Shown here: piece by piece, positions 411-53,872 of the stretch
Position numbering within the stretch: the stretch's first letter is position 1
Layout: every line of letters starts with the position of its first letter
Origin: Shigella phage Sf20
Sequence record: MF327006
Reading direction: 5' to 3' (one strand)
DNA: 64,000 nucleotides
Program-made: the position numbers and the translations under genes
The notes under the pieces: model-generated
Seen by the model: only the letters and a program-made list of their open reading frames with translations
What the model was told of the DNA's origin: nothing
Databases searched by the model: none

Positions 411-1652
411 ATGACTCATATTTTTACTGAACTGTTGCGGGAATCTACTTCCTCAGTAGCTAACCAGACAGCGCGACCGCAACTATTATCATTAACTCGC
501 GCGGTAAACAACCTGATTTTCTCTGACCTGGTAGCAATCCAGCCAACGGATCAACCAGTATCTGCATTGTACGGACTACGTTATCTTAATCGTGATGGTC
601 AGATGACTTTCCGAACTGCTGCGACCTACGGTGGCGCGGCTGGTGATCGCACAGAGATTGAAGAGTTTTCAAAAGAAAAATCTTATGACGAAGGCGCACT
701 GTTCAAATCAGGCGATGTTGTATACGAAGTTGTGACCGCTGGTACAGTCGGTGAAGATGCCGAAACTCCAGAATCTGCAATCTTTAAAGGCGTAATGACA
801 AACAAAATTCGTTTCTATAGCGATTGTGCATCGGTAGAATACTTTGAAGATAAAAACACCGAAATTTCGTCTACCTCTATGCAGTTTGACAAGTGGCAAG
901 TTAATGTAGGTTCTCGTAAACTGAAAACCTCGTTCACGACCGAATTGATGCAGGATCTTGAGGCAAGCCAAATCAACTCTGAAAACTCTGTAATTGATCT
1001 TCTGGCTACTGTTGCTTCCGAAGAGATCAACAAAGATATTATTCAGAAGTTGATCACTGTATCATCTCGCTATAAAATTAAAGGGATCACTCCTGATGGC
1101 GTACTTTCTCTCGTTAGCGTTCAGGATGCACCAACACAAGCGCGTGAACTTTACCGCTATGCTTGCGAAATGAGCAATCAAATGTTGCGGACTTCCTCCT
1201 TTGCTGGTACATACGTTTTGGCGTCTTCTCGCGTGGTTGGCCTCCTGCAATCTTCCGGTTGGATGGAAGAAACCGACAATGCTCTAAGCGAAGGTCGTCT
1301 ACGTTGCGGTCTGGAAGTGTACGCAGACACGACAACACCTTTCGATTATATGCTCGTTGGTTGTAAGCACATGATCGGTGATATGGAGAGTGTAGGTTCT
1401 CTGTTCTACTCCCCATATACAGAAGCCGACGGCGCTGGCGCGTATAAGAGCGTAATTGACCCTAATAGCTTCCAGCATCATGTAGCTATTATGAATCGTT
1501 ATTCACTCTCTGTCAACCCATACACATCAAAAGTTGATCAGGAAGAACACCAGGTCATCAAGGGTGACGATTGGGGTAAAATGGCTGGACGTTCAGAAAT
1601 GTCCTACATTTTAGGAATCGAACTGCCACCGCTTGAGATTGACAACGCTTAA
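411..1652 (+). CDS. 24: head vertex protein gp24
   Basis: Strong similarity to T4 gp24 along its length (ELLRESTS..., RYACEMS..., C-terminal MAGRSEMSYILGIELP); ORF-track start at 363 lies inside the late promoter, so the ATG at 411 (MTHIF) is preferred. Confidence 0.9.
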   Translation: MTHIFTELLRESTSSVANQTARPQLLSLTRAVNNLIFSDLVAIQPTDQPVSALYGLRYLNRDGQMTFRTAATYGGAAGDRTEIEEFSKEKSYDEGALFKSGDVVYEVVTAGTVGEDAETPESAIFKGVMTNKIRFYSDCASVEYFEDKNTEISSTSMQFDKWQVNVGSRKLKTSFTTELMQDLEASQINSENSVIDLLATVASEEINKDIIQKLITVSSRYKIKGITPDGVLSLVSVQDAPTQARELYRYACEMSNQMLRTSSFAGTYVLASSRVVGLLQSSGWMEETDNALSEGRLRCGLEVYADTTTPFDYMLVGCKHMIGDMESVGSLFYSPYTEADGAGAYKSVIDPNSFQHHVAIMNRYSLSVNPYTSKVDQEEHQVIKGDDWGKMAGRSEMSYILGIELPPLEIDNA

Positions 1653-2240
1653 CTAAATATCTAACCAAGACAAGTCAGATCCGCCCAAGATTTTTTCGAC
1701 GGCGGATCTATTTTCTTGATGATATAAGTTAAAACATGGTATCCCATGTCTACGGGCAACATAAACAGCAATTCGAGTTCCTCCCGAAACGATTCCATTA
1801 ACTTCTTTCGCCCAAAATATCACACAATCTACAGGGTCATCAAGTGTCTCACCTAAGACTTGAGCAACATTTCTGGAAAACAGATTTTGCATGTATAGCG
1901 GTATAGAACGAGGATTATCATAAACGTGTTCTAATTCATCCATCGCCAGATTCTTTTGTTCTAAGGTTTGCCATGCAATAACATCATGACCGTTATGCTT
2001 GTGGTCATAAAACTTCCAATTTGGAATGAAAATTTTTCTATAATCTGGATCGTAATACTTCATGAAAGCATTGTCCATACCGTAAGCCCCTCCAGAATGC
2101 GCTACAACGCGATTTTCTGACAATACCCTCCCAATGGTACTAGCCATTATCAAAATGTCGCTAGGCGCTTTTCTAGAGCCGATTAAAGCACATCTACGAA
2201 GTGGTTTTACTCCAAATAGATCTTGTAACTGGTCAAACAT
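1653..2240 (-). CDS. Rossmann-fold DprA/SLOG-like protein (hypothetical)
   Basis: GSRKAPSDIL...HSGGAYGMDNAF resembles DprA/SLOG nucleotide-binding cores; GGAGG RBS upstream. Confidence 0.4.
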   Translation of the reverse strand: MFDQLQDLFGVKPLRRCALIGSRKAPSDILIMASTIGRVLSENRVVAHSGGAYGMDNAFMKYYDPDYRKIFIPNWKFYDHKHNGHDVIAWQTLEQKNLAMDELEHVYDNPRSIPLYMQNLFSRNVAQVLGETLDDPVDCVIFWAKEVNGIVSGGTRIAVYVARRHGIPCFNLYHQENRSAVEKILGGSDLSWLDI

Positions 2241-2392
2241 AATATTTCCTCCATAGAAAGCAATATCATACTACAAGTTAATAACAAATACAAGTATCCG
2301 CGTAGCGGAAGCGAGCACAGCGAGCAATAAAACACTTCCAGTAATTGACTAATAAATGTTCGAAACAAATTTTTATTATTCTATAAGATAAG

Positions 2393-2418
2393 TCTTCGTT
2401 TTGATCATAATTTAATCA
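2393..2418. repeat. 26-nt direct repeat copy 1 (TCTTCGTTTTGATCATAATTTAATCA)
   Basis: Identical 26-mer recurs at 2542-2567 in a ~410-bp non-coding region. Confidence 0.7.
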
Positions 2419-2541
2419 TACATGTAAAAACTACACAAAAGGATATCGCTTCGCGAACTCCTACGGAGTATAACATTTGTGTTACAATATGTAGTGATTA
2501 ATAATTAACCAAAGATACATTTTCTATGTTCTAAAGATCTT

Positions 2542-2567
2542 TCTTCGTTTTGATCATAATTTAATCA
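2542..2567. repeat. 26-nt direct repeat copy 2
   Basis: Identical to 2393-2418. Confidence 0.7.
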
Positions 2568-2620
2568 AACAGTATTAATATTGTGCACATGTAAACTAAA
2601 ATTATGTTAATAACAGATAC

Positions 2621-2645
2621 AAAAAAGCCGCCCCGAAGGACGGCT
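2621..2645 (-). terminator. rho-independent terminator hairpin (AGCCG...CGGCT) flanked by A/T runs
   Basis: Stem-loop with A-run on + strand (T-run on - strand), directly downstream of the - strand ORF ending at 2654. Confidence 0.5.
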
Positions 2646-2653
2646 AATGTTAA

Positions 2654-3091
2654 TTATTTGTTGATAACGATCTGATTTCGGCGAATGGTAACATTACTCT
2701 TAGAGATGATCAGATCATCCGGCACTACGTTAGTTTTGTATGGCTGGAAGCGAACAAGCATCTGATTGCGTTTAGACCCTTCCTTAATCTTGATTTCCAT
2801 CTGGATATTGTTGCCTACGTGAGCAACCGCAATTTCACCTTTATTCTCATAGACCCACTTGCTGGTAACGTCTCCTGCAAAAGCCTTAATAACTTGCAAT
2901 GCTTCGTCGTATGCGGTAGAGCTGTGAACTTTCAGAAGGCCAGCCGTAGCAAGACGGGAGCAGGTGATCGCCGGAGATTGCCAAACATCAACATTAATTT
3001 GCTCAATCAGAGTAACACCGCCCGGATCAACTGCTTTGAATGCTTCGAACATTGCCTTTTTCATTGCTACGTGGTTTTTACGGAATTTCAT
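2654..3091 (-). CDS. hypothetical protein (145 aa)
   Basis: ORF with AGAGGTGA RBS upstream, terminator downstream. Confidence 0.5.
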   Translation of the reverse strand: MKFRKNHVAMKKAMFEAFKAVDPGGVTLIEQINVDVWQSPAITCSRLATAGLLKVHSSTAYDEALQVIKAFAGDVTSKWVYENKGEIAVAHVGNNIQMEIKIKEGSKRNQMLVRFQPYKTNVVPDDLIISKSNVTIRRNQIVINK

Positions 3092-3137
3092 AATTAGTCA
3101 CCTCTATTGATTAGTTATTCAGAATATTAATTACAAA

Positions 3138-3413
3138 TCAGGACATTGCCCGTTTGAATGCGTCCATTATAACAGTGTTATTTGGCTTGTCAACACGTTT
3201 TTGAACTTTATTTTTAAATTTTTTGTTGATGTGGTGTTTACGATAAACAACCTTTTCACGGTTGGCGTAAGCCTCGCGTGCGTCTTTTACCATCAACCAT
3301 GCCTTAGCCGCATCTTGTCCGCTGATCCCGCCAATCTTCTTAGCAATATCAACAAAATTAAGACCGTGGTCTTCGCGTAGCATGTAAACCATTAACGCTG
3401 TTTTCTTGTCCAT
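3138..3413 (-). CDS. hypothetical protein with possible helix-turn-helix (91 aa from internal Met)
   Basis: Start MDKKTAL overlaps the upstream stop by 1 nt (TGATG coupling); NFVDIAKKIGGISGQDAAKAW resembles an HTH. Confidence 0.4.
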   Translation of the reverse strand: MDKKTALMVYMLREDHGLNFVDIAKKIGGISGQDAAKAWLMVKDAREAYANREKVVYRKHHINKKFKNKVQKRVDKPNNTVIMDAFKRAMS

Positions 3414-3610
3414 CACTTCGCCCCATTGACGATTAACAGGATAGTGATCAGTACCGGAAACTGGATCATGACAGTGCCAAAAAACCGGATAAACGCATTT
3501 TCTGATTTCCATACATGACATGCGACTAGCTGATAGACCATTGTTGCAACCAAAGCCAGAAAATACATCTCGATTGGTGTTTCTTTGATCAATCGTACAA
3601 TCTCATTCAT
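3413..3610 (-). CDS. small membrane protein (65 aa)
   Basis: Hydrophobic segments; GAGGTGA RBS. Confidence 0.5.
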   Translation of the reverse strand: MNEIVRLIKETPIEMYFLALVATMVYQLVACHVWKSENAFIRFFGTVMIQFPVLITILLIVNGAK

Positions 3611-53713: not shown

Positions 53714-53745
53714 AAGCCGATCCATGTGGTCGGCTTTATTTTTAT
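53714..53745 (+). terminator. terminator hairpin after gene 35 (AAGCCGATC...GGTCGGCTT + T-run)
   Basis: Stem-loop followed by TTTATTTTTAT. Confidence 0.5.
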
Positions 53746-53864
53746 ACAGTTGGTTAAATTGTAACCAAAACGAAGAAAGATCTTTAGAATATAGAAAAGT
53801 TTGTTTCGGTTAAAAATTAGTCAGTGCCGTAGGCACGTCGCGAAGCGATATTTTGTTAACATTC

Positions 53865-53872
53865 TATAAATA
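53865..53872 (+). promoter_or_regulatory. T4-type late promoter (TATAAATA) for gene 36
   Basis: Exact TATAAATA ~35 nt upstream of the gene 36 ATG. Confidence 0.55.

Follow-up and report, generated by a model that had tools for sequence, protein, structure and literature searches.

A conserved noncoding module with paired Fis-type sites in RB49-like T4-type phages, a candidate promoter and replication origin

T4-type phages replicate mostly by recombination, which makes it difficult to show that a given site is or is not an origin. Only for T4 have origins been defined, and there they share no common sequence motif (PMC3016281). The minimal forms of T4 oriF (uvsY) and oriG (34) span about 100 bp, combine a promoter that lacks a -35 element and depends on an activator with an A+T-rich DNA unwinding element (DUE), and are located in late-gene regions near strand switches (PMC3016281). 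A review of T4 lists the origin mechanism and the control of origin use among the open questions (PMC3016281). RB49 and RB43, which lack MotA, are without known origins, and no middle-promoter consensus has been found in them.

Two further kinds of element resemble parts of the locus described here. High-affinity Fis sites have G at -7 and C at +7, a pyrimidine-purine step at ±3/4, an A/T-rich centre and a base other than T at +4 (PMC4784862). GCGNAGC and CCGAAGG motifs occur at priming and initiation sites, and the GCGAAGC hairpin is far more stable as DNA than as RNA (PMC13037366). We analysed a 64,000-nt stretch of DNA (hereafter the window) from Shigella phage Sf20 (MF327006), an RB49-like Krischvirus, and describe a ~120-bp noncoding module of RB49-like T4-type phages that is conserved and was previously undescribed.

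A repeated unit in intergenic DNA

A preliminary description of the window had singled out a 413-bp noncoding region (2241-2653) with an exact 26-nt direct repeat 149 bp apart, and both statements hold. The repeat, TCTTCGTTTTGATCATAATTTAATCA, has two exact copies in the 64-kb window (2393-2418 and 2542-2567, offset 149 bp), and 100 shuffles gave no match even with up to three mismatches. Likeness reaches beyond the 26 nt, with 34 of 38 positions identical over 38 nt. The similar element said to come after each copy, ACATGTAAA, does follow both, but at different distances: 1 nt at 2420-2428 and 19 nt at 2587-2595.

The 26-nt repeat is the left arm of two tandem units of ~120-150 nt, A and B, which lie on the - strand between the terminator of ORF 2654-3091 and a predicted sigma70 promoter of a DprA-like gene (1653-2240) (Table 1). 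The terminator in which the region was thought to end is real, and is also annotated in G37-3 and in the Nolan 2006 supplement, but it sits on the - strand at the upstream end. It belongs to ORF 2654-3091, the RB49p165 homologue, and not to the repeats, and it marks the 5' bound of the module region. At the other end, the predicted promoter of the DprA-like gene is absent from published promoter lists; its spacing is kept in other lineages (TTGTTT-17-TATGAT in X, TTGATT-17-TATAGT in Y, TTGTGT-17-TATAAT in W). Published RB49 promoter predictions have no entry in the region of units A and B.

Coding and known RNA families do not account for the region. Neither RB49 nor G37-3 has an annotated gene in 2241-2653, and a 53-aa TTG ORF (2207-2368, - strand) overlaps the gap mechanically. 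Reading frames across the units, translated by eye, are not conserved: the frame QNEERSLE(H/Y)RK of units A and C lacks a start codon and meets a stop in unit D, and MIKTKKDL is not kept in unit C. The window contains no tRNA or tmRNA. Rfam 15 covariance models run over the whole window gave no match at gathering score, and the best sub-threshold matches were to the terminator only.

A third copy, unit C, lies elsewhere in the window, and a fourth, unit D, lies upstream of gene 3, outside it. All share a common plan of two 15-bp Fis-type sites, a 40-50-bp A+T-rich spacer, a -10-like hexamer and one or two GC-rich hairpins. The RB49 genome has exactly four unit copies with eight arms, and no strays.

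Table 1. Positions of the units and neighbouring signals in the window
Feature	Positions	Strand	Description
Intrinsic terminator	2621-2645	-	8-bp stem, 6 GC pairs, TTCG loop, T6
Unit A core	2494-2568	-	left Fis-type site, AT-rich spacer, right Fis-type site; holds repeat copy 2542-2567
Unit A left Fis-type 15-mer	2552-2566		GATTAAATTATGATC, as read on the - strand; strict match to GNNYRWWWWWYRNNC
Unit A -10-like hexamer	2528-2533	-	TAGAAC; weak, final T missing
Unit A right Fis-type 15-mer	2496-2510		GGTTAATTATTAATC
Small AT hairpin	2471-2484	-	TAACA-CAAA-TGTTA; A-type units only
Unit A mini-hairpin 2	2457-2469	-	ACTCC-GTA-GGAGT; 5-bp stem, GNA triloop; covariation
Unit A mini-hairpin 3	2446-2456	-	TCGC-GAA-GCGA; holds GCGAAGC motif (PMC13037366)
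Unit B core	2345-2419	-	holds repeat copy 2393-2418
Unit B left Fis-type 15-mer	2403-2417		GATTAAATTATGATC
Unit B -10-like hexamer	2378-2383	-	TAGAAT; start 27 bp from left-site centre
Unit B right Fis-type 15-mer	2347-2361		GAACATTTATTAGTC; sequence unlike unit A, pattern kept
B-type conserved motif	2311-2325	-	GCTCGCTGTGCTCGC
Unit B terminal hairpin	2297-2309	-	TCCGC-TAC-GCGGA, then T-rich tract
Predicted sigma70-type promoter, DprA-like gene	2265-2293	-	TTGTAT (2288-2293), N17, TATGAT (2265-2270)
Unit C (third copy)	53750-53848	+	between gp35-like and gp36-like tail-fibre genes
Unit C left site	53752-53766	+	one G in centre
Unit C hexamer	53785-53790	+	TAGAAT
Unit C right site	53808-53822	+	
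Unit C hairpin 2	53824-53836	+	
Unit C hairpin 3	53838-53848	+	
Late promoter	53865-53872		TATAAATA; downstream of unit C

Comparison with related phages, one of the checks suggested in the preliminary description, finds the repeats conserved in 58 Krischvirus genomes and five metagenomic sister lineages. All four units are present in each of the 58 Krischvirus records. The metagenomic lineages (X, Y, Z, W and V), recovered from a protein-cluster database, carry units at orthologous loci and have DprA-like proteins 50-87% identical, and the tandem order of A-type and B-type units is preserved across this divergence. Two wider scans, of IMG/VR by pattern and of metagenomes by the DprA-like protein, yielded little besides Krischvirus. 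The small AT hairpin of A-type units recurs in Z_1, and X_A carries an ACAT/ATGT variant; the B-type motif GCTCGCTGTGCTCGC has as homologues GCTCACTGCGTTCGC (lineages Y and W) and TTCGCTTCGCTCAC (lineage Z and Pseudotevenvirus).

More distant phages have related or substituted elements. In Pseudotevenvirus (the RB43 group) related elements occur at three sites per genome, upstream of both gene 3 and rnh and beside gene 24/uvsW, all in divergent intergenic regions. In one sister lineage about ten 11-bp direct repeats (iterons) replace the unit at the gene 3 locus, and Citrobacter phage Moon, whose genes 2 and 3 are only 84 nt apart, has no unit there. A homing-endonuclease gene has entered the DNA that separates unit D from the gene 3 late promoter, leaving unit D intact. 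The cores show concerted evolution, being near-identical within a genome and diverged between lineages, and unit C of one Krischvirus resembles a C/D recombinant.

Fis-type sites, unstable duplex and mini-hairpins

The preliminary description had read the repeats in three possible ways, as paired promoters, as the locus of a small RNA or as an array of binding sites. The last is the best supported: the repeat holds a putative 15-bp Fis-type site, of which each unit has two. Unit arms conform to the Fis motif of E. coli, G NN YR W5 YR NN C, with paired sites 53-65 bp apart. In the 413-bp region there are four strict matches to GNNYRWWWWWYRNNC against 0.115 in local shuffles, and none of 5000 shuffles reached four; the motif is degenerate and was recognised only after the sequences had been inspected. 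The window as a whole has nine strict matches (13.6 expected), five of them inside units. In RB49, 6 of the 26 genome-wide strict matches fall inside units, and six of the eight arms are strict, the other two having one non-A/T base in the centre; the eight arms of a genome are homologous copies and do not count as independent events.

Arm sequences keep the features described for high-affinity Fis sites. All of the 34 distinct arm 15-mers have G-7, Y-4, A-3 and C+7; at +3, 32 of them have T, at +4 none does, and -6/+6 are free. By sequence, the arms have the core of high-affinity Fis sites (PMC4784862) as well as the flanks that Fis prefers (T/A at ±8, outer A-tracts, no G at -8): left sites are flanked as TTT-core-AAA(A) and right sites as (T)TT-core-A, with C at -8 in the right sites of K_C and K_D. 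Centre-to-centre spacing is 55-56 bp in K, 60-65 in Y, 63 in W and 53 in X, so that the sites keep no fixed helical phase. Upstream of the left arm, at 19-20 bp, lineages X, Y and Z have additional Fis-type sites, and each Pseudotevenvirus element has a single, relaxed site. From this pattern we infer that Fis may bind the units. Most genes for non-canonical bases are missing from RB49 and RB43, so their DNA would contain ordinary cytosine and be accessible to host DNA-binding proteins.

The two arms of a unit can also pair with each other, as would be expected of a structured RNA. RNAfold gives a 7-8-bp outer stem with inner stems in most units (z down to -6.6 in V_1 and -5.3 in Y_B), the sense strand folds with equal or better energy than the antisense in 13 of 16 units, and the altered right arm of unit B still pairs with its left arm. 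Against this, two palindromic protein sites are complementary by construction, and about a third of aligned arm positions are mismatched, including 112 transversions. A protein site is favoured over a hairpin because arms that differ keep the pattern while their N positions are non-complementary.

In nine units of lineages K, Y, Z and V the spacer has a hexamer that agrees with TATAAT at 5-6 of 6 positions and begins 25-27 bp from the left-site centre; the distance is 20 bp in lineage X and 33 bp in Pseudotevenvirus. Units have no -35 element, and the left Fis-type site stands in its position. The - strand boxes on which the preliminary description based its promoter pair do exist, GTTTAC in unit A or GTTTTTAC in unit B, each with TATGAT, but they are 32 and 14 nt apart, which is not sigma70 spacing. 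That TATGAT lies within the Fis-type site and is not retained in units C and D, and we rejected these promoters. The promoter-like -10 elements are instead TAGAAC in unit A, which lacks the critical last T, and TAGAAT in unit B, a geometry suggesting that the units may have promoter activity.

The duplex at the units is among the least stable of the RB49 genome. GC content falls to 0.23 at 2500-2599 (unit A) and 2350-2449 (unit B). Ranked among 80-bp windows of the whole RB49 genome, unit D is the least stable, B second, A fourth and C in the top 1%; other promoter regions are likewise among the least stable windows of RB49, and A+T-rich intergenic DNA is generally unstable.

Units end in mini-hairpins in which a C-G-closed GNA triloop caps a short G+C stem. 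Hairpin 2 reads CCGTAGG or CCGAAGG, or the complement of either, and GCGAAGC occurs in two units of the window, A and C, as well as in lineages X, Y and Z; lineage W has GCGTAGC. The stems covary: 100% of cells are paired, four of five pairs show double changes, and there are no wobble pairs. GTA loops alternate with TAC, and GAA loops with TTC. RNA folding and covariation had been suggested as a check on the region, and the covariation is clear in these stems, but the fold z-scores of the window units reach only -1.5 to -2.1.

A promoter with an unwinding element, weighed against other functions

The existence and conservation of the repeat family are established, as are the Fis-type pattern of its arms, the instability of the duplex and the covariation of the hairpins. 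By analogy with T4 oriF and oriG, we propose, with a probability of roughly one in three, that each unit combines an activator-dependent promoter with a DUE, Fis taking the place of MotA. Fis is assigned this part because RB49-type phages lack MotA; no motA orthologue was found in RB49. A Fis dimer bound at about -38 would replace the missing -35 element and bend the DNA. RNA polymerase would then melt the unstable spacer and send a short transcript into the A+T-rich downstream segment. Transcript or open complex could serve as the entry point for replication, comparable to the R-loop primer at T4 oriF/oriG, and the mini-hairpins may stabilise the unwound state or mark the transcript end.

The same analogy raises the possibility, which we hold tentatively and with some doubt, that the units are replication origins of cytosine-DNA T4-type phages, in which Fis holds the role of MotA and firing is tied to host physiology. 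Origin function of this kind would extend to Krischvirus, its uncultured relatives and, in diverged form, Pseudotevenvirus.

A small RNA locus remains a rival, if a rather unlikely one. Each unit would transcribe a 60-95-nt trans-acting RNA, making the units a multicopy sRNA family: the spacer -10, aided by Fis or another factor, would drive transcription through the right arm and the mini-hairpins to a U-rich tail, and GCUCGCUGUGCUCGC of B-type units would act as seed. The promoter-like geometry serves this reading as well as our main model. All units are co-oriented with flanking genes and, like an inserted gene, sit between a strong upstream terminator and the promoter of the next gene. Their 3' hairpins covary, and unit D stays intact though parted from the late promoter. 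Transition mismatches between the arms read as G-U more often in the sense (36) than in the antisense direction (18), but G-U pairs are absent from the hairpin stems. The 3' ends speak both ways. At the end of B-type units a GC hairpin of 5-7 bp runs into a U-rich tract, and the hairpin of unit B is terminator-like, but units A, C and D finish in 3-5-bp stems with weak U-tracts, and a 3-4-bp GCGAAGC stem without an adjacent U-run (K_D, Y_D) is a poor terminator. Real terminators of this phage have long stems and UUCG loops, and the GCGAAGC hairpin is much less stable as RNA than as DNA (PMC13037366). Rfam has no matching family, the units have no homology to T4 rnaC/rnaD, candidate seeds differ strongly among lineages, and complementary targets in the phage genome occur at chance level only (11-14-nt matches).

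Alternatively, the units might be a Fis or Fis-like architectural or regulatory array for neighbouring genes, with neither a transcript nor an origin role of its own, a reading we consider improbable. Such an array could activate the promoters of the DprA-like gene, gp36 and gene 3 from upstream, insulate them topologically or make them responsive to growth phase. It would draw on the best-supported feature, the Fis-type sites, with the extra upstream sites of lineages X, Y and Z. A promoter lies immediately downstream of every unit, and in K, X, Y and W the proximal site keeps a distance of -94 to -100 to the start predicted for the DprA-like promoter. Spacing relative to the late promoters ranges widely, from -52 to -99, and the homing-endonuclease insertion has moved unit D ~620 bp away from the gene 3 promoter with the unit still in place; on these two grounds we rejected an upstream activating region for late promoters. 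We know of no upstream activators of gp55-dependent late promoters. The late promoter TATAAATA itself has only partial matches within units, the real ones being downstream of C and D. An array of this kind would also leave the conserved -10-like hexamer and the mini-hairpins unexplained.

Still less probable is a selfish or neutral palindromic repeat (MITE-like), or a PeSL-like recombination cassette, its copies homogenised by gene conversion and with no dedicated function. Concerted evolution of the cores, the recombinant-like unit C and the flipping of hairpin loops (GTA/TAC, GAA/TTC) would fit, and shuffling at repeated regulatory cassettes is known from RB49-type genomes (PMC2839356). But the same three loci and the tandem order are kept in lineages whose flanking proteins are 50-87% identical, the 58 genomes show no presence/absence polymorphism, and the arm pattern persists through sequence change. 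Target-site duplications, sought by eye, were not seen, although inverted arms exist, and unselected tandem direct repeats would be expected to vanish fast in a highly recombinogenic phage.

Least probable of all, and very unlikely, is a cis-acting structured RNA in which the arms pair into a long, imperfect hairpin on read-through transcripts and serve in RNase III-type processing or in transcript stability, like the T7 intergenic RNase III sites, since the fold z-scores are weak in the window units and about 0 in X_A, X_B and W_2, lineage X swaps the inner stem for two local hairpins so that the shape is not conserved, and strong terminators upstream, with a divergent gene upstream of D, would leave scant read-through RNA.

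Comparison with known systems

Several regulatory elements resemble the units in part and were rejected as identities. Like the units, the PeSL cassettes of RB49 and phi1 are composite regulatory elements that recur in the intergenic DNA of these phages, and the gene upstream of 2241-2653 has one (TTGACA-N16-TATAAT at 3193-3166). PeSLs are marked by a near-perfect TTGACA-N17-TATAAT promoter, G(n)-loop-C(n) stems and a place in hyperplastic early regions, and the units lack all three. A promoter scan of 1500-3300 found no near-consensus - strand site within 2241-2653, the sole 12/12 site being that at 3193-3166, and the unit hairpins (ACTCC/GGAGT, TCGC/GCGA, TCCGC/GCGGA) are not poly-G/poly-C. 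The PeSL papers Arbiol 2010 and Comeau 2014 do not mention the units.

Enhancers of the Hin/Gin/Cin type likewise consist of two Fis sites that end a ~60-bp segment, and unit C lies in the tail-fibre cluster. Their Fis sites are 48 bp apart in strict phasing and act together with a serine invertase and inverted crossover sites, and the variable 53-65-bp spacing of the units led us to reject this identity; no invertase gene is annotated in RB49, and no inverted recombination sites were seen. Sites for FNR, CRP, Fur, ArcA, PurR and IHF were set aside, as their half-site spacing or core appeared not to match the units. Hairpin 2 of unit C resembles the stem of a type I-F repeat, and hence an anti-CRISPR RNA mimic, a likeness we judged to be chance because the stems covary freely between units.

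Further parallels come from Fis-dependent promoters and single-stranded initiation hairpins. E. coli promoters that depend on Fis have, as the units appear to, a Fis-type site over the -35 position, a good -10 and a poor -35. At proP P2, a class II case, the Fis site is at -41, and rrn and tRNA promoters have upstream Fis sites. Units differ in belonging to a lytic phage, in a site centre at about -37/-38 and in a second site at about +18. Mini-hairpins of the phage G4 origin, RSF1010 ssiA and the N4 virion-RNAP promoters share the GCGAAGC, CCGAAGG and CCGTAGG heptamers with the units, and in both sets the hairpins have a 5-bp stem and a 3-nt loop (PMC13037366). In those systems the hairpins work in single-stranded DNA together with dedicated primases or polymerases of a kind not known from Krischvirus, and about half of the unit hairpin-2 loops, unlike theirs, place GNA on the opposite strand.

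Repeats also bring T4 oriE into the comparison. The oriE repeats map to the gene 4-53-5 region, near gene 3. They are evenly spaced 12-nt repeats (PMC3016281), whereas the iterons that one sister lineage has at its gene 3 locus are 11 bp long and of other sequence. Such an array is absent from the phage analysed here, and the function of the T4 oriE iterons is itself unproven (PMC3016281).

The promoter-plus-DUE reading finds its nearest counterpart in T4 oriF and oriG. Like these, the units are ~100-bp modules, with a candidate sigma70-type -10 and a putative activator site replacing the -35 element. T4 origins are several per genome, lie in late-gene regions near strand switches and are individually non-essential (PMC3016281), traits that the units would share. 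A+T-rich DNA of the unwinding-element type is present in the units, as the GC content of 0.23 and the instability ranks attest. The putative activator site differs in being Fis-type and centred near -38 instead of -30, and no MotA box (TGCTT at -30) was seen on reading the unit sequences. Units also add a second, downstream site and then mini-hairpins, and their copies share sequence with one another, which T4 origins do not. Units A/B and C lie between co-directional genes, C being 5 kb from the nearest strand switch.

An origin, a promoter or another function, the module would explain a conserved 400-bp gap that annotations now leave empty or fill with spurious ORFs. Were it an sRNA family or a Fis switch instead, it would be, as far as we know, the first module for a host nucleoid protein to be recognised in a lytic T4-type phage. 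Taken as a promoter with an unwinding element, it offers a concrete and cheaply testable origin candidate, in positions that recall T4 oriE, oriF and oriG.

A four-copy intergenic module in Krischvirus

The 413-bp non-coding region has matches in 58 GenBank phage records at 95–99.8% identity, all of them RB49-like T4-type Krischvirus myoviruses. No tRNA gene was found in the region, and no Rfam family matched it. The 26-nt exact direct repeat of the preliminary description is present where none is expected by chance, and similarity between its copies extends to 38 nt. The element ACATGTAAA does follow both copies, although at differing distances. The terminator said to end the region lies on the - strand, so it terminates the upstream gene and opens the region instead of closing it. 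The suggested interpretation is right in part, as a binding-site array and possibly as promoters or RNA, but the specific -35 and -10 boxes proposed are not credible.

A BLAST comparison of the region with the window showed that a longer unit has a third, diverged copy (unit C), between the terminator of a gp35-like tail-fibre gene and the gp36-like late promoter TATAAATA. A profile built from three cores found exactly one further copy in the whole RB49 genome, unit D, which lies upstream of gene 3 and is divergent from a small ORF. All four units (A and B being the tandem copies within the 413 bp) point in the same direction as the genes that follow them. By blastn the family is confined to the 58 Krischvirus genomes, most often with four places per genome. 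The units form a conserved, hitherto undescribed, four-copy intergenic module, comprising two Fis-type sites, an exceptionally unstable spacer with a -10-like hexamer, and covarying mini-hairpins. They differ from the PeSL cassettes of RB49 and phi1, which carry a consensus sigma70 promoter and poly-G/poly-C stems; the units lack both.

Three observations concern neighbouring genes. A perfect PeSL-type promoter, the sole 12/12 match within 1500-3300, lies upstream of ORF 2654-3091. The mechanical ORF at 3138-3521 is longer than the annotated 24.3/DUF2774 gene, which leaves the start codon uncertain. The small ORF divergent from unit D, RB49p130, codes for a conserved protein that is heptad-rich and looks coiled-coil-like by eye. 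The late-type box AATAAATA lies upstream of the ORF, which despite its position in an apparent gap is probably a real late gene.

Features of the window and of comparison sequences (L-numbers are handles of the latter)
Feature	Sequence	Coordinates	Strand	Remarks
Downstream gene, DprA-like	window	1653-2240	-	RB49p164; adjoins 3' end of capsid vertex gene 24
Non-coding region	window	2241-2653		units A and B
26-nt repeat, two copies	window	2393-2418; 2542-2567
Terminator	window	2621-2645	-
Upstream gene (ORF)	window	2654-3091	-	RB49p165
Mechanical ORF	window	3138-3521		127 aa
PeSL-type promoter	window	3166-3193	-	TTGACA-N16-TATAAT, TG extension
Third copy	window	~53738-53851	+	unit C, 53750-53848
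24.3/DUF2774 gene, annotated	L002	4898-5173		RB49p166; 91 aa
RB49p130	L004; L016	13937-14191; 760-1003		~84 aa
rnlB locus, Morganella phage vB_Mm5	L027	1956-3588
Extra segment, lineage X	L013	1300-1490		~150 nt
Homing-endonuclease insertion	L014	574-1170		IMG/VR 3300045988_033703
Iteron-like array, lineage U	L030	940-1500		Logan SRR29026054_4852, 152.8 kb
Early-type promoter, EcL22g	L039	162660-162760		TTGACC-N17-TATAAT

Arms, spacer and mini-hairpins

The sense-strand core of a unit spans 70–85 nt and runs from a left arm (e.g. TTGATTAAATTATGATCAAAACG) through a spacer of 40–50 nt, with ~23% GC and a TATAAT-like hexamer, to a right arm (e.g. TTTGGTTAATTATTAATCAC). High-affinity Fis sites share a 15-bp motif in which ±7 are G/C, ±3/4 form a pyrimidine-purine step, the centre is rich in A/T and T is absent from +4; T/A is preferred at ±8, as are flanking A-tracts (PMC4784862). 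All arms conform to this motif. The strict pattern GNNYRWWWWWYRNNC occurs nine times in the window, against 13.6 expected, and five of the nine matches lie inside units. The 413 bp hold four, compared with 0.115 in dinucleotide shuffles of the region, none of 5000 reaching four. Across the RB49 genome 6 of 26 strict matches fall in units, and the two remaining arms miss the pattern through a single central G or C only. Among 34 distinct arms from six lineages, positions -7, -4, -3 and +7 never violate the pattern and +4 is never T; -6/+6 are free to vary.

The pattern is kept despite very different arm sequences, such as GAACATTTATTAGTC (unit B) and GTGTAATAATTAACC (lineage X, a metagenomic sister lineage), and the N positions of such arms are not self-complementary, as a protein site predicts and a hairpin does not. 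That the arms instead pair into the hairpin of a structured cis-RNA, as their mutual complementarity and a long imperfect hairpin drawn by RNAfold would allow, is improbable and ranks last among the readings discussed here: z-scores of the window's own units are only -1.5 to -2.1, about one-third of aligned arm positions are mismatched, and two local hairpins replace the inner stem in lineage X. The arms are better described as protein sites of Fis type, an assignment by a degenerate motif recognised only after the sequences were seen. Most of the genes for non-canonical bases are missing from RB49 and RB43; we infer that their DNA contains ordinary cytosine and could thus be read by host proteins.

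The spacer has promoter-like geometry. Units B, C and D, like lineages Y, Z and V, have a TATAAT-like hexamer (5–6 of 6 positions) that starts 25–27 bp from the left-site centre. This puts the left site at about -38, the usual -35 place; no -35 hexamer is conserved in the units. Exceptions are unit A (TAGAAC), lineage X (at 20 bp) and Pseudotevenvirus (at 33 bp). When all 80-bp windows of the RB49 genome are ranked by nearest-neighbour duplex stability, from the least stable upwards, units D, B and A come first, second and fourth, and unit C falls within the top 1%.

One or two short hairpins follow each core. A-, C- and D-type units have a 3-nt loop on a 5-bp stem and then (T)CGC-GAA-GCG(A); B-type units have the conserved motif GCTCGCTGTGCTCGC and then a 5–7-bp hairpin. 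Covariation supports them, as 11 distinct hairpins are 100% paired, with both-side changes at four of five pairs and no wobble pairs. Nearly all three-base loops are GNA on either strand (GTA/TAC, GAA/TTC, TCC), the only exception seen being TAT in unit W_2; in unit Y_A the loop has four bases, GATA. The heptamers of the units are the DNA mini-hairpin motifs GCGNAGC and CCGAAGG. As DNA these are far more stable than in RNA form, and they have been reported from the G4 origin, RSF1010 ssiA and N4 early promoters (PMC13037366). As intrinsic terminators they are poor next to the long ones with UUCG loops elsewhere in the phage. GCGAAGC occurs 27 times on both strands of RB49, against ~10 expected from base composition; just two of these are in units.

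Diverged lineages and autonomy of unit D

Lineage X (IMG/VR contigs from one metagenome) carries the complete set of loci: A/B, C and D. Four further lineages (Z, Y, W, V) were reached through DprA-like protein homologues of 50–70% identity. Each has a 330–430-bp gap at the corresponding place, in which a strong terminator precedes two or three units in tandem; in lineage Y, gene 3 is preceded by a unit D as well. Unit cores hardly differ inside one genome and differ strongly across lineages, whereas the flanking hairpins track orthology, a pattern of concerted evolution. Unit C of one Krischvirus resembles a C/D recombinant. The RNA ligase 2 gene (rnlB) of Morganella phage vB_Mm5 sits directly between the p165-like and DprA-like genes, so the Krischvirus non-coding modules fill the slot of this gene. 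Lineage X also has an extra segment, absent from Krischvirus, between the DprA-like promoter and start codon. Strings resembling GTTTTAG(A/T)G recur in this segment, which may also be structured and could be a 5'-UTR element.

In one Krischvirus an HNH/AP2-type homing-endonuclease gene, with its own promoter (TTGACA-N17-TAGATT), is inserted exactly between the last unit D hairpin and the gene 3 late promoter. The insertion leaves unit D intact; the unit is thus autonomous rather than an upstream portion of that promoter. Nor is the spacing between units and downstream late promoters conserved.

Relatives of the module and comparison with T4 origins

In the Pseudotevenvirus RB43, gene 3 is preceded by a related element that shares GCGAAGC, the inverted-repeat-flanked spacer motif CTCTATATATAA, and TTCGCTTCGCTCAC. 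This element is kept in 65 genomes at three places each. In Enterobacter phage EcL22g one copy precedes gene 3, a second separates the divergent genes 55 and rnh, and the third lies between a divergent gene adjoining uvsW/uvsW.1 and the 3' end of gene 24; all three places are divergent intergenic regions, with a promoter after each element. Downstream of the third there is an early-type promoter with no obvious ORF; it points into the 3' end of late gene 24, which is convergent, and suggests early antisense transcription like that described at T4 oriE.

Sister lineage U (gp3 73% identical) has about ten 11-bp iterons at the gene 3 locus, where unit D lies in Krischvirus, in place of a unit: (T/G)GAATCGCTA repeats at 11-bp spacing beside three GC hairpins, with no palindromic unit. 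This array looks like origin or operator iterons.

T4 oriF and oriG are ~100 bp each and combine two parts: a promoter that depends on MotA, its sigma70 -10 accompanied by an activator site in place of the -35, and an A+T-rich unwinding element where a primer R-loop forms (PMC3016281). Neither a motA orthologue nor a middle-promoter consensus was found in RB49. The most likely reading, to which we give a probability of about 0.35, is that the module would be an activator-dependent promoter plus unwinding element of origin type, with Fis replacing MotA. A trans-acting small RNA made from that same candidate promoter is a tentative second. A purely architectural Fis array is unlikely by comparison with both, and a selfish repeat is more doubtful still.

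For the origin-type reading, the likeness to T4 extends to placement. T4 origins lie in late-gene regions, close to strand switches (PMC3016281), and the element positions in Krischvirus and Pseudotevenvirus recall oriE (gene 5 region), oriG (rnh/34) and oriF (uvsY/uvsW). Iterons, too, are found both at T4 oriE (PMC3016281) and at the gene 3 locus of lineage U.
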